Below are positions 1,373-14,250 of a stretch of 14,608 bases of DNA, piece after piece. Under the pieces are notes generated by a model. It saw nothing but the letters and a program-made list of their open reading frames with translations. It was not told the origin of the DNA and did not search any database. The DNA lies in the NCBI GenBank assembly GCA_048884785.1, contig JBHLQM010000036.1, positions 18,895-33,502 of the forward strand, written 5' to 3'. Made by a program: the position numbers and the translations under genes. Origin of the DNA: Candidatus Thorarchaeota archaeon (GTDB lineage Archaea; Asgardarchaeota; Thorarchaeia; Thorarchaeales; Thorarchaeaceae). How positions within the stretch are numbered: position 1 is the first letter of the stretch; each line of letters opens with the position of its first letter.

Positions 1373-3778
1373 GTGCGTCCTTTGACAATTGAAGATGTAG
1401 ATGTATCTAGCAAAATCTGGTCTCCCTCTGAAAACCTGCCGCCTCGAATAAGACGTTTGAGAAGTCATTTCTATTCATTTCATGATAGGAAGGAGACAAA
1501 TGAGCCCTATTCTTTTACAACCGGTACAGAATGGGATGAGGTCTATTCCATTCATGATTGGGCTAATGAGCCTGCATTATATCCATTCTTTCCTTCAGTA
1601 AACGCTACCTTGCAAGCCATGGCAGTTCCAGTTGAGATTCCTGATGATTTCTGGAAAAATAGTCTTCCAATGCGTCGTGCAATCTTTTTCCACGAAGTGA
1701 TGACCAAGTATATGCCTATCACAATATTAGAGGACGATTTGATTGTAGGTTTCCATTTCAATACAGCTCTTTCAAGAACCCTGAATAGGCAGGAAACCAA
1801 GGCAAGAAACAAAGATTCAGAGAAATGGTTTGATGAGGCAAAGCGACTCAGCAAAGTTGGAGTGGGCACAGCATCTTCAATTCCTGGTCATGTTATTCCA
1901 AACTATTCGAAGGTCATGAAAATCGGTATGAAAGGACTTGTTGAGGAGTATGAGGAAATTCTAAAAAATGACTTATCTGATAATCATAGGCAATTTGTTG
2001 AATCCCTTATACTTAGTTGCAGGACTGCCAAGGAGTTCAATGAGCGTCAAGCACTGAAAGCTATGGAACTGGCAAAGACTACTTCTGATCCAAAAAGGAA
2101 GAAGGAATTAGAAGAGATTGCTAGAATCTGTTTAAAGGTTCCCTGGGAAGTCCCTCAAACCTTCTGGGAGGCACTTCAGTCTCTTTGGACCGTGCACATG
2201 CTTGTAATGGCAGCCGAATCATATCCTGGCGCAGGTCTTTCCTATGGCCGTTGGGATCAATACATGTATCCTTTCTATAAAAAGAGCATTGAATCTGGTG
2301 ATTTGACGGTTGAGAAGGCAAAAGAGCTATTACAGTGCTACTGGATCAAACACAATTACGTGTATGATTTTCAGGGAAGACTGGGTCTGAACCAAGGCAT
2401 AAACTCAAGCTTTGGACAGCTTATCACTCTTGGTGGATGTGGAGCAAATGGGGAGGACCTTACAAATGATTTGACTTGGCTTGCACTTGATGTCATTGAG
2501 GAGATGAATCTTTTAGAGCCGAAACCCAATGTGAGAATTCACAAGAACACACCTGACAAACTTCTCCTTCGCCTTGCTGAGATGCTATCAAAAGCACAGG
2601 GTTCTCCATTTTTGTTGAACTTTGATGAGCATAGTATAGAGGGACTTGTCTGGCAGGGCATTCCCCGTGAAGATGCATGGGACTATGGAATTGTTGGTTG
2701 CCTAGAAAACACCATGCAGGGAAATGATAGATCTGATACTGTTGATGTGAATATCAATCTCGCGAAGGCTGTGGAATTCGCACTGAATGATGGCAAAGAT
2801 ATGCTTACCTGTGAACAAATGGGTCTCAAAACTGGCAATCCTTTGGGCTTTGATACCTATGAGAGGTTTTTGAGCGCTGTAAAATCTCAGCTTGCAGAGC
2901 TAGTTAGGCTTCTGGTACGATGCGGCAACATGGCTGATACATTGAGGGCTAGATATCAACCTACACCGTATCTGAGCGCATTAATGGATGGGTGCGCGGA
3001 AAGAGGAAAAGACATCAACGAAGGCGGAACAGACTGGAATTTTAATACCATGGAAGGAATGGGAATTGCTACACTTGCCGATTCAGTTGTTGCAGTGAAG
3101 AAGCTGGTATACGAAGAAAAACGGTGTTCGTTGGAAGAACTGCTTCAGGCAATTCGCGATAATTATGAAGGGCATGAGGAACTCCATCAAATGCTCAGGA
3201 CCAAAGCACCCAAGTTTGGAAACGACAATAAGGATGCTGATGACGTAGCCCGTGAATTGTCAACGTTCTGGGCAAACGAAGTGGTCAAGTATGAGAACCC
3301 CTTTACTGAACGAAAGTATCGTGCAGGCTATCTCTCTTGGAATTACTTCATACCATTAGCACCGTTGACAGCAGCAACACCTGATGGAAGGCGGCGTGGA
3401 GAGTTTCTATCTGGCGGAGTGGGTGCCGTTCAAGGAATGGATGCAAAGGGGCCGACTGCTTCAAGTATGTCCGTTGGTAAACTAGGCTTGGAAACAATTC
3501 CTAATGGGGCTTCGCACACTATTACATTAAGTCCGTCAATGGTTCGAACCCCTGAACACATTTCCAAACTAGCCTCGTTTCTGAGAGCCTATAATGAAGT
3601 AGGAGGAACGGCATTACAGATCAATATCATCGATAGTAAAACACTCAGGGATGCTCAAGCGAATCCTGACCGGTACTCTAATCTCCTTGTACGAGTAACA
3701 GGCTACAATGCATTCTTCACACAAATAGGTCGTGAGCTGCAGGAAGAGATTATCTCGAGAACGGAGCATAATCTGTGA
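1373..3778 (+). CDS. Glycyl radical enzyme (PFL2/eliminase-like superfamily, single catalytic Cys), substrate unknown
   Basis: 801 aa, GTG start. C-terminal glycyl-radical motif LLVRVTGY (Gly777). Thiyl loop YGIVGCLEN (Cys443, Glu445). Other GRE hallmarks are PGHVIPNY, P.TFWEALQ, SYGRWDQY, APKFGND, ATPDGRRRGE and LQIN. It is adjacent to an activase. Confidence 0.95.
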   Translation: MRPLTIEDVDVSSKIWSPSENLPPRIRRLRSHFYSFHDRKETNEPYSFTTGTEWDEVYSIHDWANEPALYPFFPSVNATLQAMAVPVEIPDDFWKNSLPMRRAIFFHEVMTKYMPITILEDDLIVGFHFNTALSRTLNRQETKARNKDSEKWFDEAKRLSKVGVGTASSIPGHVIPNYSKVMKIGMKGLVEEYEEILKNDLSDNHRQFVESLILSCRTAKEFNERQALKAMELAKTTSDPKRKKELEEIARICLKVPWEVPQTFWEALQSLWTVHMLVMAAESYPGAGLSYGRWDQYMYPFYKKSIESGDLTVEKAKELLQCYWIKHNYVYDFQGRLGLNQGINSSFGQLITLGGCGANGEDLTNDLTWLALDVIEEMNLLEPKPNVRIHKNTPDKLLLRLAEMLSKAQGSPFLLNFDEHSIEGLVWQGIPREDAWDYGIVGCLENTMQGNDRSDTVDVNINLAKAVEFALNDGKDMLTCEQMGLKTGNPLGFDTYERFLSAVKSQLAELVRLLVRCGNMADTLRARYQPTPYLSALMDGCAERGKDINEGGTDWNFNTMEGMGIATLADSVVAVKKLVYEEKRCSLEELLQAIRDNYEGHEELHQMLRTKAPKFGNDNKDADDVARELSTFWANEVVKYENPFTERKYRAGYLSWNYFIPLAPLTAATPDGRRRGEFLSGGVGAVQGMDAKGPTASSMSVGKLGLETIPNGASHTITLSPSMVRTPEHISKLASFLRAYNEVGGTALQINIIDSKTLRDAQANPDRYSNLLVRVTGYNAFFTQIGRELQEEIISRTEHNL

Positions 3779-4746
3779 TGACAACATCTGGGCTGATCAC
3801 AAACATACAACGCTGCTCGACAGAGGATGGACCTGGCATTAGAACATCCGTATTTCTAAAAGGGTGTCCATTGCATTGTATATGGTGTCATAACATTGAA
3901 ACTATTGACCCTAAACCTCGATTGATATGGCACTCTAGAAAATGCATTGCCGATCAAGCCTGTGTCAAGTCCTGCCCAGAAGAAGCACTCACTCTCACTT
4001 CTGATGGAATGAAGATCGACTTGGAAAAATGCTCTCTATGCGAAATCTGTGAGGATGTATGTCCTTCGGGAGCTCTTGAGATTATGGGAAAGGAATGGGC
4101 TTCCAATGAGTTGGTTGAGGAGTTGCTTCGTGACAGAGTATTCTTTGAGACCTCAAACGGAGGAGTTACAATTACTGGTGGAGAGCCACTATTTCAGCAT
4201 GAATTCGCAACGGAAATCGCTTCAGGACTAAAATTGAATAATATTCATGTCGCACTAGATACGTCAGGCTATTCAAATGAGCATGTTTGGAGAAGTATTT
4301 TGCAACATATCGATCTTCTTCTATTGGACCTGAAAGTCATGGATGGAGATTTGCACATGAAGTATACTGGAGTTCCTCTAGAGAGAATTCTTGAGAATGC
4401 GAAGATTGCGTCAAAGCTAGGAATACCCGTATGGATACGCACTCCAATTATCCCAGACCATACTGATTCTCAGGAGAACATTAGGGCTATCTCCTCTTTC
4501 ATTATGGAGTATCTCCCTACAGTGGAAAGATATGACCTACTCGCGTTCAACAAGATGTGTACTGAGAAATACACTCTCTTTGGTCTTGAGTATCCGCTTA
4601 AGGGACATGATTTAATTGAGAAGGAAAAAATGAAGCGGCTAGCAGATGTTGCGAGAGATGAAGGTGTATCGAATGTTACATGGTCCGGTATGACAAAACG
4701 AGATGCCGGAAAGAGTATCAAGAATGCAAATCACGAGGTGAGTTAA
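3778..4746 (+). CDS. Glycyl-radical activating enzyme (radical SAM) with ferredoxin-like insert
   Basis: DGPGIRTSVFLKGCPLHCIWCHN (CxxxCxxC), GGVTITGGEP, DTSGY and LLDLK motifs. The insert has CIADQACVKSCP and CSLCEICEDVCP. The start overlaps the GRE stop (GTGATG: GTG 3775 or ATG 3778). Confidence 0.95.
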   Translation: MTTSGLITNIQRCSTEDGPGIRTSVFLKGCPLHCIWCHNIETIDPKPRLIWHSRKCIADQACVKSCPEEALTLTSDGMKIDLEKCSLCEICEDVCPSGALEIMGKEWASNELVEELLRDRVFFETSNGGVTITGGEPLFQHEFATEIASGLKLNNIHVALDTSGYSNEHVWRSILQHIDLLLLDLKVMDGDLHMKYTGVPLERILENAKIASKLGIPVWIRTPIIPDHTDSQENIRAISSFIMEYLPTVERYDLLAFNKMCTEKYTLFGLEYPLKGHDLIEKEKMKRLADVARDEGVSNVTWSGMTKRDAGKSIKNANHEVS

Positions 4747-4747
4747 T

Positions 4748-5569
4748 GTGCATAGTATAATTCCCGAAAAACTGTCAAACGCTTTGAATATCTTTGAAAC
4801 ACCTAAGTTCATGATCACTCGGGATGCCAGTGGAGAGCCAAATATAGCTCTTGTCATGACTTGGACAGTCTATGACAAAAATCGTCTGGTGTATGGCGAT
4901 TTCATGACATACAAATCACGCATGAATCTAATAGATGGAAATTCGAAGATGGCACTACTGGTCATGACAACGGATCTCAATAGTTGGCTGATTAAGGCTG
5001 ATTTTGAGTCATATCACAAGAATGATGAGATCTATGAATACATAGCAACGACACCTCTTTTCAAGTATAATCAATACACCAATGCAAGAGGAGCTGGTCT
5101 TGCTGAAGCGAGATGGATAAGCCCTGAGTACTCCATTTCCAAGCTCAATGTTCTCTCAGGGTACCTCAAAGCAAAACTCGCAGCTCGAGGAGTATCCTAC
5201 AATGAAACGGAGGAGGGAAATATGCCTCGTCCAGTCATGGACCGTTTTTCTAAGATGGCTGCAGTCAAAATCCTATCCTTTATCGGTGAAGATGGGTATC
5301 CGGAAGCCTTTCCCGCCTTTGGCATTGTTCCAGCACATAGAAACAGTCTCACTGTAAATCGAACAGAAGAGAACCGCCGAGGATATCACCTAAGTGAGGG
5401 CCAACGCGTTGCAATATCCCTAGTCACCCTTGAGCCAGCTGCATTTCAAGTCAAAGGCGTTTTCAGAGAAGTTAGTTCGAAATCCGGAATAGTAGAGGTT
5501 GACCGAGTATATGCCTGCTCTCTACCAAGACCTGGTGAGCGAATTGACATTCCTCTGGTTAAAACCTGA
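4748..5569 (+). CDS. Tandem pyridoxamine-5'-phosphate-oxidase-like (split beta-barrel, putative flavin-binding) protein
   Basis: Two similar halves, each opening with the split-barrel pattern: KFMITRDASGEPNIA...KSRMNL..NSKMALLV and KILSFIGEDGYPEAFP...GQRVAISLV...FQVKG. The GTG start is 1 nt after the activase stop and is preceded by GAGGTGA (SD-like). Confidence 0.75.
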   Translation: MHSIIPEKLSNALNIFETPKFMITRDASGEPNIALVMTWTVYDKNRLVYGDFMTYKSRMNLIDGNSKMALLVMTTDLNSWLIKADFESYHKNDEIYEYIATTPLFKYNQYTNARGAGLAEARWISPEYSISKLNVLSGYLKAKLAARGVSYNETEEGNMPRPVMDRFSKMAAVKILSFIGEDGYPEAFPAFGIVPAHRNSLTVNRTEENRRGYHLSEGQRVAISLVTLEPAAFQVKGVFREVSSKSGIVEVDRVYACSLPRPGERIDIPLVKT

Positions 5570-6153: not shown

Positions 6154-6663
6154 ATGTGGAGGAGAATAGTCGACCATTTTAAAGAATCTCCAAGTAGGCT
6201 TGCAGTTGCACAATCACTAGTGCGGCATGGATTTAGAGTGACCAATCCCGGGGAAATCAAGTGTGGAGAGATTAGAATACCTTTGAAATCAATAGGAGAT
6301 GCCTTGGGATTCGATAGAAGAACTGTTCGGGCAACCACCGAGGACATCTGTTCCAACGATGATCTATACTCTTTCTTCTCGGTACTCCTACCTGCGGGTC
6401 CATCTCTAGAAAAAGTGAGCAAAGTTCTGGGCTACGGTGTTGTCACCATATACGTCGAATCACCTGAGAATCCTGGAATCCTATCACAAGTGACATCGAC
6501 TATCGCAGGGTATAACATTCCAATTCGTCAAGTACTCGCAGAGGATGTGGCGATATATGAGCAACCATGTCTCAAAGTCATCACACAGGAACCTTTACCT
6601 GGAGGAGTTATTGGTGCTCTTACGGGGATTGAAGGAGTCAGTAGAGTTATCATTGACAAGTAG
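6154..6663 (+). CDS. Archaeal ACT-domain putative regulator of amino-acid metabolism (COG2150-like)
   Basis: The N-terminus MW..I...F...PSRL.VA..L..HG, CGEIRIP and IGDALGFDRRTV (HTH-like) is typical of this archaeal family. C-terminal ACT domain PGILSQVTSTIAGYNIPIRQ. Confidence 0.85.
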   Translation: MWRRIVDHFKESPSRLAVAQSLVRHGFRVTNPGEIKCGEIRIPLKSIGDALGFDRRTVRATTEDICSNDDLYSFFSVLLPAGPSLEKVSKVLGYGVVTIYVESPENPGILSQVTSTIAGYNIPIRQVLAEDVAIYEQPCLKVITQEPLPGGVIGALTGIEGVSRVIIDK

Positions 6664-10416: not shown

Positions 10417-11754
10417 CTAAAATGATACAAATGTGCCAGATGCAAGTATGATGATATAGATCACGACACCAATGGCCATAATTAACGAATCGCGCAGCAC
10501 AATCTTTGCCAATCTGGTTTCTCTGTCAGCTTGATACACGAAGATGATTTTATTCATAATGGCCATTGTAGTTGAAATGATGACAGCATATACAGCCGTT
10601 CCCAATGTGATACCTCCACCAGCGAATGTTATTGCGGCAGTCGTTACAACTGCACCCGCATTAACAAGCCCTCCAAATATTGCCACAAAGAGGAATCCTG
10701 CGTCATTGGCAATAACTTGAGCCACCAATGAAATATATAGTATTCCTCCAAATACTGCAGCGAATCTCAATGCTGCTCCAAACTCAAAGGGTGAAACAAG
10801 CCCGGTGTCAATCTCATGACGTTCTGTGGTTTCTAATTTCCTCTGCTCATAAACAAGTCTTCCTACTCCCACCAAAATCAGAATTAGAAATGGAATCAGA
10901 TAATACCCAATGATTTGAAAAGTCGGATCTAGGATTACTACAAGAACTCCATTTCTTAGAACCATGGCTAGGTTTGCGAAAATAGTAGCTACTGAATACT
11001 TGCCGGGGCTCTCTCTCCCAGTTTTTACATATGTATCTGTCAGACTAGTTACAGTTGCTTCACTGTTAGCAAACCCACCAAAGAAACCGAAAAAGTACTG
11101 CCCTTTATCCTTGTATTTCTTCACGAGAAGGTAGTTCGCGAAACTGATGGATAGGAGAATAACAATCAGGAGGTATGTTGTGAATATTGGGAATCCATCA
11201 GGCAAACCAGGTACAGGAACTGTTTGAGGAACCAAAGGCCAAAAGAATAGGATAAGCACTCCAAGCTCTGCTGCACTAATCATCTCATCATGACTAATTC
11301 CTGCTATTGCTGCTGCAAGCTCCTGTTTGAATCCCAAAACAAGGAATGTCAAAAATGCAACAGTCATCGCAAGCACTTGGAGTGTACCAATTAGATGTCC
11401 AGGTTGCGGAACATCTAATCCCACGAGGGTTCCAAGAACAAACGACATAGCAAAAACTATAGTAGTGGTCATCCCTCTTCTCATTGATCGTATTATTTTT
11501 TGATAGAGCTGTACTGCCACCAAGAGAACAGATATTGAAGTAGCATAGACCATGATAATAGGATTTCCTGAAACAACGAACGAATAGGATGCAAGCGTAC
11601 CGAATAAGCTGTGTAGGCCAAATGACCTTATACCAAATGCACTGTCTTGTCTGGCTGTTTTTTGCCGTTCGAGACCAATGAGACCACCAACTGCAAAACC
11701 CACTAGTAATCTGAGGACGAGTTCTGCACTTAGGAACTCTACAGCATTTTGCAT
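10417..11754 (-). CDS. MgtC/SapB-family membrane protein with DUF4010 domain
   Basis: The N-terminus RLLVGFAVGGLIGLERQ...FGIRSFGL is an MgtC-like signature. It is followed by LFFWPLVP, SISFANYL, GGFANSEATVTSL and SPFEFGAALRFA, as in DUF4010 proteins. About 13 hydrophobic segments. Confidence 0.88.
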   Translation of the reverse strand: MQNAVEFLSAELVLRLLVGFAVGGLIGLERQKTARQDSAFGIRSFGLHSLFGTLASYSFVVSGNPIIMVYATSISVLLVAVQLYQKIIRSMRRGMTTTIVFAMSFVLGTLVGLDVPQPGHLIGTLQVLAMTVAFLTFLVLGFKQELAAAIAGISHDEMISAAELGVLILFFWPLVPQTVPVPGLPDGFPIFTTYLLIVILLSISFANYLLVKKYKDKGQYFFGFFGGFANSEATVTSLTDTYVKTGRESPGKYSVATIFANLAMVLRNGVLVVILDPTFQIIGYYLIPFLILILVGVGRLVYEQRKLETTERHEIDTGLVSPFEFGAALRFAAVFGGILYISLVAQVIANDAGFLFVAIFGGLVNAGAVVTTAAITFAGGGITLGTAVYAVIISTTMAIMNKIIFVYQADRETRLAKIVLRDSLIMAIGVVIYIIILASGTFVSF

Positions 11755-11824: not shown

Positions 11825-11840
11825 AAATGAAAAAATGAAG
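11825..11840 (-). terminator. Putative archaeal T-rich terminator downstream of rpo6
   Basis: Minus-strand CTTCATTTTTTCATTT, 16 nt after the rpo6 stop. Confidence 0.45.
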
Positions 11841-11856
11841 ATGTGGTGGACTTATA

Positions 11857-12576
11857 TTAGTCCAGCCACGTATGCTTTAGCAAAACTGAGAGTGGAACAT
11901 CATAGGTTTCGCCAGTAGGCAATGTTCTTCTCAGAGTCATTGGGAGTACTCCAGAAGCCAATTCCAATTCGGCCAATGCAAACAATCCTGAAGGTGCTTT
12001 GCTTGTATCAACAAGAACAGGAGCTCCCATTGATATCTGCAGAGCCCTGGCTCCAACGATTCTTGCTCTTTCGAATTTGGTCAGCCATTTGGGTCCTGCA
12101 TGGATACCCAGATCGGCCTTCTCCTTTTCCAGGCCTGATGAGAGGGACACTCTTTCGAATGCTTGCTCAATCTCCTCTGTTGGAGGCAGTTCGTGTCTCT
12201 CTGGCTCTGGCTCCTGAGTTTTCTTTCTTTTGGATTTCTTTGATTTCCCTACTAAGTCAATAGCCCCTGCTTCGACTGCCTCTAGGAGAGCCTTCGCCTC
12301 CTCAATGATTGCTTCTGCCTTTGACACACTGAACCCTGAAACTGCTCCGGCTAGTTCTTCCGCATTAGCTTCGGCGATCTTGTCAATTGTGTCATATCCC
12401 TTTTCCACCAGTTTGATGGCATTCTTGGGACCAACACCCTGGATATTTGTAAGAATCTCGGATTTTTCAGCGTCCGTAATCTCCTCGGATTCCTCGGATT
12501 CCTCAGATTCCTCGGACTCTTCATCATCCTCTTCTTCCTGTTCTGCGTCGATTGTCTTTTCGGGGTCTTCTGACAT
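11857..12576 (-). CDS. rpoK: DNA-directed RNA polymerase subunit Rpo6 (K; RPB6/omega homolog) with N-terminal acidic tract and HhH domain
   Basis: The C-terminal ~80 aa carry the RPB6 signature LTKFERARIVGARALQISMGAPVLV...ELASGVLPMTLRRTLP.G. The N-terminal part has an HhH motif (LTNIQGVGPKNAIKLVEKGY). Start is ATG 12576 with AGGTG ~9 nt upstream, or GTG 12588. Confidence 0.93.
   Translation of the reverse strand: MSEDPEKTIDAEQEEEDDEESEESEESEESEEITDAEKSEILTNIQGVGPKNAIKLVEKGYDTIDKIAEANAEELAGAVSGFSVSKAEAIIEEAKALLEAVEAGAIDLVGKSKKSKRKKTQEPEPERHELPPTEEIEQAFERVSLSSGLEKEKADLGIHAGPKWLTKFERARIVGARALQISMGAPVLVDTSKAPSGLFALAELELASGVLPMTLRRTLPTGETYDVPLSVLLKHTWLD
12482..12517 (+). repeat. 4 x 9-bp coding tandem repeat (TCCTCGGAT)
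   Basis: tcctcggat-tcctcggat-tcctcagat-tcctcggac. It encodes the (SEE)4 acidic tract of Rpo6 on the minus strand. Confidence 0.9.
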
Positions 12577-12612
12577 TAGTTGCGACACCTTCGATTGTTC
12601 GTATGATTCTTT

Positions 12613-14250
12613 CTAGTCCTCGTCATCCATGCCGCCTTCGCCGCCTGGTGGGCCGCTAGGTCTGCCTGCACTCTTTGAACTGATGACATCATCTATCTTA
12701 AGAATCATCTGGGCTGCTTCAGCAGCTGACATGACAATCTGTTTGTTTACAAGAGCTGGCTCAATTACACGTGCAGATTTCATGTCTCCTGGCTTGCCTT
12801 TTTCTATATCAACTCCATAAGTGGTTTTTCCTTCCGCATGAGCTGACCTTAGACCCACAATAATATCGATTGGATCGATACCTGCATTCTCGGCAAGTAT
12901 GGCTGGTAGGGATTCAACGGCATCTGCAAAGGCATTTACAGCATATTGCTCTCTTCCCTCAAGCTTGGCTGAGAAGTCTCTGAGACTCTTGCAAATCTCA
13001 CAGGCCAACGCTCCACCGCCGTATGTGATTTTTGGATAGATTACGACGTCTCGGACGACATGGAGTGCGTCATTCAAGGCTCTATCAACTTCATCAACAA
13101 TGTGATCTGTTCCCCCCCTGACCAGTATTGTCGCAACTGCAGATTTTGGAGTACCTTCAACAAAGAGCATCTTGTCTTCACCAATCTGTCTTTGTTGGAC
13201 AAGTTTGGCCTTCCCTAAGTCGGAGCTAGTCAGATTCTGGATTTTTGATACAATGGATGCTCCAGTTGCCTTGTGAAGTCTCTCAACATCTGACTTCTTG
13301 ATTCTTCGAACTGCCAGAATTCCGTTCTTTGCTAAATAGTGTTGAGCTACGTCATCAATTCCCTTCTGGGCGATAACAACATTCGCTCCTGATTCCACTA
13401 TTTTGTCTACCATGCTCTTCAGCATTCGCTCCTCTTCATCAAGGAAGCTCTGCATCGCAGCTGGGTTCGTGATTGAAATCTTGGCATCAAACTCGGTCTT
13501 GGTCACTTCTAGAGCAGCCTCGAGAAGTGCAATTTTTGCATTCTCAATCTTTGTGGGCATACCTGGGTGAATCACTTCTTTGTCAAGAACAAGACCTTTG
13601 ACCATCTCTGTTGAGCTAACAGGCAATCCTTTTTGCTTCTGACGTGGGATGTTTTCCATGTCAATATCTTCATCGCCTTCTCTTGCCTTTGCGACGGCGA
13701 GTATTGCATCCACAACAACCTTTGCCAAATGGTCCCGAGAAGTTGAAACGAACTTGCTTGACATTGCTGTCTTGGCGACATCAATGAGAATCTTCCTGAA
13801 TCCTGCATCTTCGGGATCCACGTTCTCAGACATGTCTTCTATTACTTTGAGCGCGTGTTCAGCGGCTTTCCTGTATCCGCTAATGATTGTTGTTGGATGG
13901 ATCTTTTGATCAAGGAGAGTTTCTGCCTCTTTAAGCAGATTCCCTGCAAGCACAGCGGCAGTTGTAGTTCCATCACCAACTTCTGCATCTACTGTCTTGG
14001 ATACTTCAATGATCATCTTTGCAGCAGGGTGGGCTACATCCATCTCTTTCAGAATGGTGGCACCATCATTGCTGACAGTTACATCACCAAAGGAATCCAC
14101 GAGCATCTTGTCCATTCCTTTTGGACCGAGCGCTGATTTGACTGCTTCAGCAATCACAATCGCAGCCATGATGTTGTTTCTCTGCGCATCACGACCACGA
14201 GTTCGCTCAGTGTCCTCTCTCAACACAATTACTGGTACTTGTTGACTCAT
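12613..14250 (-). CDS. Thermosome (group II chaperonin) subunit
   Basis: 545 aa with [33 protein letters not shown] and ILKIDDVI motifs and a Gly-rich acidic tail. GGAGG lies 7 nt upstream of the ATG. I cannot assign alpha versus beta. Confidence 0.97.

Follow-up and report, generated by a model that had tools for sequence, protein, structure and literature searches.

In this study, we found that Rpo6, a subunit of RNA polymerase, carries an additional folded domain of the helix-hairpin-helix (HhH) type in Candidatus Thorarchaeota. The gene, rpoK, is located on the minus strand of the stretch of DNA analysed here (14,608 nt; hereafter the window). Its product is composed of an acidic tail, an (HhH)2 domain, a lysine-rich patch, a Pro/Glu linker and the Rpo6 core. 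The initial annotation had read all five parts in a single open reading frame (ORF), and each of them lies where it had been placed. The ORF (11857-12588) is free of interruption and comprises 243 codons from a GTG plus the stop codon. The HhH and Rpo6 parts are separate genes in no relative, and the source genome (3.6 Mb, 91% complete; contig C36 carries the window) contains a single Rpo6 match, so the two parts belong to one gene, as had been proposed. That this is a real and conserved HhH-Rpo6 fusion can be regarded as practically certain. The thorarchaeal long Rpo6 is a lineage-specific variant of a known subunit, and it has already been mentioned in the literature.

Domain architecture of the long Rpo6

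Amino acid numbers count from the GTG at 12588, so that the ATG at 12576 encodes M5. The gene and its parts are as follows.

11857..12576, minus strand: rpoK/Rpo6 gene, 239 codons, ATG at 12576-12574, stop codon TAA at 11859-11857
12586..12592, minus strand: Shine-Dalgarno-like GAAGGTG, 9 nt ahead of the ATG, read from the sequence; it includes the GTG at which the ORF finder had let the frame begin
12466..12576, minus strand: N-terminal tail, aa 5-41, acidic (net charge -21) and disordered (predicted local distance difference test score (pLDDT) <50)
12268..12465, minus strand: (HhH)2 domain, aa 42-107, which belongs to the RadA/Rad51 N-terminal type; its hairpins are G51-V-G-P-K55 and G85-F-S87..K90
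12217..12249, minus strand: lysine-rich patch GKSKKSKRKKT, aa 114-124, net charge +7, nearly invariant
12109..12216, minus strand: Pro/Glu linker, aa 125-160, of fixed length, with the conserved motif PEPEP-x-R-H-E-L-P-P
11860..12108, minus strand: Rpo6/Rpb6 core, aa 161-243

The core is, by sequence and fold, a member of the family that comprises canonical Rpo6/RpoK, Rpb6 (RPABC2) and bacterial omega. It was matched by the NCBIfam model RpoK NF002207 (aa 158-239; 91.5 bits vs. a cutoff of 71) and by Pfam RNA_pol_Rpb6 (PF01192; aa 167-195; 26.2 bits vs. a cutoff of 26). Its matches in the PDB include Sulfolobus Rpo6 (E-value 2e-20) and eukaryotic RPABC2 (E-value about 1e-17). The AlphaFold2 model of the core has a pLDDT of about 90, and Foldseek aligned it with yeast Rpb6 (45% identity, root-mean-square deviation (rmsd) 1.8 Å, 73 columns) and with S. 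acidocaldarius Rpo6 (44% identity, 2.9 Å, 83 columns). The top Foldseek match, 7zs9_F, is an unusually long Rpb6 chain (118 residues) in a yeast pre-initiation complex. The initial annotation had likened the end of the core to the tail of eukaryotic RPB6. The motif RRxLPxG is indeed common to yeast Rpb6; however, it is equally present in Sulfolobus Rpo6, so the resemblance is not specifically eukaryote-like, and we rejected the C-terminal motif as a eukaryote-specific trait.

The HhH domain had been placed at about 12453-12283, which agrees with the Pfam HHH_5 match (PF14520; aa 44-99, about 12459-12292; E-value 3e-14; 53.6 bits vs. a cutoff of 27). Its assignment to the RadA N-terminal type is borne out by profile and structure matches. 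The NCBIfam model TIGR02236 matched the N-terminal region of RadA to aa 46-121 (E-value 1e-9), and the nearest profile matches in the PDB were P. furiosus Rad51 (1pzn; E-value 1e-10), the HhH repeats of topoisomerase V (Topo V; E-value 8e-10) and RadA. The N-terminal domain of H. marismortui L32e was also matched (E-value 4e-7), and the NusA acidic repeats gave a weak match (E-value 2e-3). In the AlphaFold2 model made with the family alignment, the domain has a pLDDT of 86-91 and five helices within aa 39-107. Foldseek superposed it on the RadA N-terminal domain with an rmsd of 1.4-1.5 Å over 60 columns and 40% identity. Thus the RadA/Rad51 N-terminal (HhH)2 domain is the best match for aa 42-107 in both sequence and fold, and the conserved G-x-S-x-x-K hairpin of the Rpo6 arm appears to correspond to the DNA-contacting RAD51 hairpin around K64 and K70; there the HhH domain sits on a recombinase, whereas here it sits on a polymerase subunit.

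Segment statistics were taken from an alignment of 62 family members. In these sequences G53, P54, K59, G85, S87 and K90 of the HhH domain are invariant, and both Gly-containing hairpins, G51-V-G53 and G85-F-S87, are conserved. The domain (aa 42-104) is 59-63 aa long in the family. Its net charge is -4 both here and at the family median, so the description of the domain as fairly acidic is correct. The core is 82-84 aa long, with a net charge of +2 here and +4 at the median. Mean pairwise identity is 0.77 in the core, 0.76 in the region of the patch (aa 108-124), 0.60 in the HhH domain (aa 42-107), 0.53 in the linker and 0.37 in the acidic tail.

The tail varies from 0 to 124 aa in the family. 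It has 37 aa and a net charge of -21 here, compared with medians of 24 aa and -7, and the acidic run proper is aa 17-36. The tail is long in this protein because aa 12-23, the longest acidic portion, is a 12-residue insertion that is absent in more than 90% of the aligned homologues. The lysine-rich patch, in contrast to this variable tail, is 10-11 aa long in all sequences; K120, R121 and K122 are invariant, and K115, K118, S119 and K123 are at least 90% conserved. The stretch KSKKSKRKK that the initial annotation had singled out is aa 115-123.

All 62 sequences have a linker of exactly 36 aa, without a single insertion or deletion. P129 is invariant, E126, P127, L134 and P136 are at least 90% conserved, and the net charge is -7 here with a family median of -5. 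In the AlphaFold2 model the linker has a pLDDT of 51-72 and secondary structure only from a helix at 152-160 on. Since its length never varies, the linker should be more than a floppy spacer, and part of it probably lies on the surface of the enzyme. The earlier idea of a simple flexible tether therefore does not hold: the linker is fixed at 36 aa, and the basic patch before it is nearly invariant. In two homologues, P0015 (320 aa) and P0016 (325 aa), a block composed of the HhH domain, the patch and PEPxPD..LPP is tandemly duplicated ahead of the Rpo6 core. Because these parts were duplicated as a block, they behave as one unit.

The true start of rpoK is the ATG at 12576 rather than the GTG at 12588, which gives a protein of 239 aa. 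This is because M5 and S6 are nearly invariant across the 62 homologues and the GTG is located inside the Shine-Dalgarno-like GAAGGTG.

Distribution of the fusion and of its HhH module

A search of 5.8 billion proteins gave 238 homologues, which range from 133 to 426 aa in length. Of the 120 that were listed, nearly all carry both PF14520 and PF01192, and the named ones are labelled 'RNA polymerase subunit K' and come mostly from Thorarchaeota. In a survey of 400 Asgard genomes by means of the RpoK model, Rpo6 lay in an open frame of 220-251 aa in every listed genome of the family to which the window belongs and in one of 90-160 aa in every other family, with one exception described below. The fusion is lineage-specific, as had been suggested. 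When the whole protein was searched for in the family's 86 genomes, which their sources name Thorarchaeota, the full-length fusion was present in 80. In the remaining six, Rpo6 is truncated at a contig end (two cases seen) or the gene was not found in the assembly (one case checked, G339). Splitting of HhH and Rpo6 into two genes in relatives was considered and rejected, as the apparent exceptions (G323, G378 and G381) are contig-end truncations. Rpo6 is present as one copy per genome across the family too; a second, short Rpo6 was found in no family genome except for a 90-aa fragment on a second contig of G327.

These data also bear on the possibility that the fusion is an artefact of annotation or assembly, or that an internal start yields a short Rpo6 as the main product in the cells. 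Two observations could be cited for it: a Met is found in the column just ahead of the core (aa 160) in 35 of the 62 homologues, and the databases contain a few stand-alone proteins of the N-terminal module (P0130, P0131, P0138 and P0152). However, this Met is the sole recurrent one in the linker columns; the protein studied here has a Leu (CTG) in its place, and 27 of the 62 homologues have Leu, Ile, Lys or Val there. A short Rpo6 from an internal start, which the initial annotation had raised, was therefore rejected for the source genome. The stand-alone pieces have junk tails typical of frameshifts or contig ends. Moreover, the fusion was assembled independently in the 80 genomes and in hundreds of metagenome contigs, and the short fragment of G327 has no counterpart in the other genomes. 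We regard an artefact as hardly credible.

In the sister family, represented by a single genome, Rpo6 has 153 aa and a charged disordered tail of about 70 aa without HhH. It is also encoded behind a thermosome gene. Since this Rpo6 has the charged tail and lacks the HhH domain, the HhH domain was gained at the base of the family, by insertion into a charged tail that already existed.

In a profile search of 1.84 billion representative proteins, the N-terminal fusion was found in only three clusters at 50% identity. The same search revealed proteins with the reversed order, in which the Rpo6 core is followed by two (P0129) or one (P0137) HHH_5 domains. The carriers of this C-terminal HHH_5 form a subclade of another Asgard family, whose source names are Kariarchaeaceae or Heimdallarchaeota. 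One example is a 190-aa protein of genome G049 (contig C41; L012:655-1227, plus strand), composed of the Rpo6 core, a Lys-rich linker and HHH_5. Six protein clusters share the C-terminal design (members include P0272-P0275, P0129 and P0137), and the rest of that family, including the closest relatives, has a short Rpo6 of 104-137 aa. An N-terminal fusion in one lineage and a C-terminal fusion in another mean that Rpo6 acquired a tethered HhH on at least two occasions, at opposite ends. Two independent fusions argue that an HhH domain at the Rpo6 position of the polymerase is useful.

Similar modules are found on other proteins. In the source genome, HHH_5 with Lys-rich linkers is fused to ribosomal protein L32e and, in two N-terminal copies, to subunit A of topoisomerase VI (Topo VI-A). 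It is also present at the C-terminus of a 561-aa frame without any other Pfam domain. RadA is encoded by a separate normal gene and has an acidic tail ahead of its own HhH. The HHH_5 carriers of the source genome are located as follows.

L005:1-1992, minus strand: HHH_5 carrier
L006:1462-2403, plus strand: HHH_5 carrier
L008:13-1695, plus strand: HHH_5 carrier
L009:748-1806, minus strand: HHH_5 carrier

The paralogous HhH copies on Topo VI-A, L32e and RadA are merely 33-40% identical to that of the Rpo6 arm, and the copy on Topo VI-A is the most similar. Among the closest relatives of the Rpo6 HhH in the search of 1.84 billion proteins were an L32e with four HHH_5 and an S25e with two C-terminal HHH_5 (P0128 and P0221). 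Judging from these sequences, the HHH_5 module is a promiscuous add-on of nucleic-acid machines. The HhH-extended L32e (haloarchaeal PRK12766; PDB 1s72_Y) is comparable to the long Rpo6 in that the same module is N-terminal on a housekeeping subunit of a nucleic-acid machine and is joined by a charged linker. The L32e linker is long and Lys/Pro/Ala-rich, whereas that of Rpo6 is the fixed 36-aa Pro/Glu linker.

A different arrangement of Rpo6 was seen in a Kariarchaeaceae-like genome (G052, contig C157), where the sole Rpo6 match is inside a 525-aa ORF (L011:294-1871, plus strand; P0307). This protein has two full-length homologues from independent metagenomes (P0308 and P0309, the latter at L046:861-2438; 61-62% identity), and at least one of them shares the downstream HAD-hydrolase neighbour of G052. 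In the three proteins (512-525 aa) the Rpo6 segment (about aa 131-223) is nearly identical, while the flanks diverge. The N-terminus gives a weak Tox-ART-HYD1 match, which reaches the Pfam cutoff in one of the three. The C-terminal 200 aa resemble PD-(D/E)XK nucleases of the Cas4/Exo5 type (VIA-align Z 9.0 to Cas4 in 7mi4; atlas feature scores 0.93), with an invariant D377..E391-x-K393 and a pattern of C326 plus C-x2-C-x5-C. The AlphaFold2 model of the 525-aa protein is poor (mean pLDDT 44), and a fold could be assigned for the C-terminal domain only.

Proposed function of the N-terminal arm

We tentatively favour the idea that the arm grips duplex DNA non-specifically. The HhH domain would, together with the lysine patch, hold duplex DNA independently of its sequence, and this grip would be tethered to the polymerase at the Rpo6 position, that is, at the base of the clamp. 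The arm could then hold promoter or downstream DNA during loading, or raise the residence of the enzyme on DNA. The acidic tail may compete as a DNA mimic, covering the patch or the cleft as long as no DNA is engaged. Such a role would be similar in logic, not in ancestry, to that of the bacterial alpha subunit's C-terminal domain (alpha-CTD).

This idea is supported by the uneven conservation of the arm and by the HhH domain itself, whose best sequence and fold matches are to the N-terminal domain of RadA/Rad51 and to the HhH repeats of Topo V. The residues conserved in it fall on the Gly, Ser and Lys positions that are canonical for the hairpins of DNA-binding HhH domains. The fusions of HHH_5 and Lys-rich linkers to Topo VI-A and L32e in the source genome point in the same direction. 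The G85/S87/K90 hairpin presumably corresponds to G65/S67/K70 of human RAD51; this correspondence is approximate, as it was derived from coordinate offsets of the PDB matches. A PDB search with aa 66-112 alone gave no useful match for aligning the hairpin to human RAD51. K64 and K70 of RAD51 contact DNA, and their mutation impairs binding (PMC10990931). As for the tail, yeast Rpb6, and putatively the human protein, extends its N-terminal tail from the same core into the Pol II cleft, from which the tail has to withdraw when the DNA opens (PMC10237034).

On the other hand, several points weigh against a DNA grip. With its net charge of -4, the HhH domain resembles the protein-binding NusA acidic repeats, to which it is weakly matched. 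In the Kariarchaeaceae fusions the linkers are basic, acidic or Ser-rich in different proteins, so that a Lys patch is not universally required. The conserved linker of fixed length suggests an arm that is partly docked on the enzyme instead of moving freely, and AlphaFold3 models of Thorarchaeota Rpo6 are reported to show contacts of Rpo6 with Rpo5 and with 'RID', not with DNA (PMC13257274). The acidic HhH domain, the fixed linker and the AlphaFold3 contacts would instead be expected of an arm that docks on protein. The HhH domain, alone or together with the acidic tail, would then recruit or position a factor (TFE, Spt4/5, TFS or a chromatin protein), or else pack on Rpo5/Rpo1, and to this explanation we give a modest probability. 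A 36-aa linker with a conserved Pro/Glu motif resembles a docking strand, and NusA AR2, which binds alpha-CTD, is a precedent for docking. The acidic tail of human RPB6, which binds the PH domain of TFIIH p62, is a proven protein-binding tail (PMC8754651). What speaks against protein docking is that the conserved residues occupy the positions expected for a DNA-binding hairpin, that the nearest sequence relatives are the DNA enzymes RadA and Topo V, with further HhH modules on Topo VI-A, and that the invariant +7 patch adjoins the HhH domain.

It is also conceivable that the arm binds RNA or couples the polymerase to the ribosome, by gripping nascent RNA near the stalk and exit channel or by pairing with the HhH modules of L32e and S25e. 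Rpo6 adjoins the stalk base in Pol II and archaeal RNA polymerase. The ribosomal proteins among the close HhH relatives, the HhH-L32e fusion in the source genome and the match to the H. marismortui L32e chain are all in line with this. However, HhH domains chiefly contact the backbones of duplex DNA, and the most similar HhH copy in the source genome is on the DNA enzyme Topo VI-A, so we consider this explanation unlikely. Still less probable, in our view, is that the arm has no specific ligand and is a retained accretion that affects only the solubility, assembly or abundance of Rpo6, for example owing to its position behind the thermosome gene. Charged N-terminal tails of varied length without any domain do occur in several Asgard Rpo6 proteins. 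An arm without a ligand, however, would hardly be conserved so strongly and unevenly, with an invariant patch, invariant hairpin residues and a linker of fixed length, nor would its module be expected to be duplicated as a block or gained independently by a second lineage.

If the arm binds DNA, Asgard archaea would have a way of their own to load or hold the polymerase. The arm would also provide an experimental handle on the role of N-terminal Rpo6/RPB6 tails at the clamp base, which bears on the origin of the eukaryotic RPB6 tail. A bolder proposal, which we regard as doubtful, starts from the two independent fusions: selection would have made the Rpo6 position the place where archaeal RNA polymerase attaches an arm that contacts DNA, an archaeal counterpart of alpha-CTD. 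It further supposes that the acidic Rpo6 tails of Asgard archaea are forerunners of the eukaryotic RPB6 tail that acts as a DNA mimic in the cleft.

The alpha-CTD is likewise a small HhH-type domain tethered from a small/assembly subunit for an additional contact with DNA or a factor. The analogy is functional only: there the carrier is alpha and the domain is C-terminal, whereas here it is on an N-terminal arm of the omega homologue, and the two are of independent origin. Pfam RNA_pol_A_CTD (PF03118) gave no match to the long Rpo6 at an E-value of 0.01 or below. To our knowledge, outside bacteria no cellular RNA polymerase has a core subunit that bears, on a tether, a folded domain for binding DNA or a factor. 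Canonical Rpo6 has a folded extra domain neither in the solved archaeal chains (57-95 aa) nor in the other Asgard frames (90-160 aa). Eukaryotic RPB6 has, as here, an acidic disordered tail N-terminal to the same core; however, it is without the HhH domain and the Lys patch, and sequence homology of its tail to that of the long Rpo6 was not detected, the composition being of low complexity. The PDB matches to yeast RPB6 begin at the core, and the alignment with human RPB6 extends about 19 residues into the linker (query aa 142, chain residue 31), in low-complexity sequence. We know of no TFIIH p62 in archaea. According to Okuda et al., the N-terminal tail is absent in most archaeal RpoK.

The long N-terminal sequence of Thorarchaeota Rpo6 was mentioned in one sentence by Shematorova & Shpakovski (Int J Mol Sci 2026;27:4679; PMC13257274). 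They reported an extra N-terminal domain predicted by AlphaFold3 for MHA1137641.1, cited the HhH-fold paper of Shao & Grishin, and suggested that the long N-terminus may stimulate transcription. This is the same protein family with the same extra N-terminal domain. In our literature search, no other paper linking Rpo6/RpoK with HhH was found. The initial annotation had allowed that the architecture might be already described and common, and this applies in part: it is universal in the family, and public annotation already shows both Pfam domains on the long Rpo6. Its importance is tempered by this visibility and by the mention in 2026. The paper of 2026 is silent on the RadA N-terminal type of the domain, on the Lys patch and its invariance, on the constant linker length of 36 aa, on the duplication of the block, on the distribution at the family level and on the independent C-terminal fusion in Kariarchaeaceae.

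Genes around rpoK

The surroundings of rpoK contain the following features.

12613..14250, minus strand: thermosome gene directly upstream of rpoK; its TAG stop is 36 nt before the rpoK ATG, and no T-run is present between them
11830..11835, minus strand: T6 run, 21 nt past the rpoK stop, read from the sequence

The T6 run is likely an archaeal oligo-T terminator. Because the gap of 36 nt contains no T-run, the thermosome gene and rpoK are probably co-transcribed. Their adjacency with a gap of 15-40 nt is found in 17 of 18 resolved junctions, the window being counted among them, and the junctions come from 11 genera of the family; G317 has a gap of 197 nt. In the sister family the adjacency is kept with a gap of about 110 nt. 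This location is unusual, since rpoK is normally in the ribosomal-protein/rpoN cluster. In the window the thermosome and rpoK genes share a frame and are separated by a single TAG, and frames of about 785 aa were reported in some genomes, which raised the question of a thermosome-Rpo6 read-through fusion. This candidate was rejected because stops lie at every inspected junction, including two from G337 and G342, and because the frame is shared in only 11 of the 18 junctions.

Directly downstream of rpoK, the window contains a gene for a 445-aa MgtC/DUF4010 membrane protein (10417-11754, minus strand). A TrpY-family regulator is encoded at 6154-6663 on the plus strand, with a score below the curated cutoff (159 bits vs. 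180). The region 1373-5569 on the plus strand encodes a glycyl-radical enzyme of 801 aa (PFL-like plus Gly_radical) and, with 323 aa, its radical-SAM activase, after which follows a tightly coupled ORF of 273 aa (4748-5569, plus strand) that had no match in the Pfam search.

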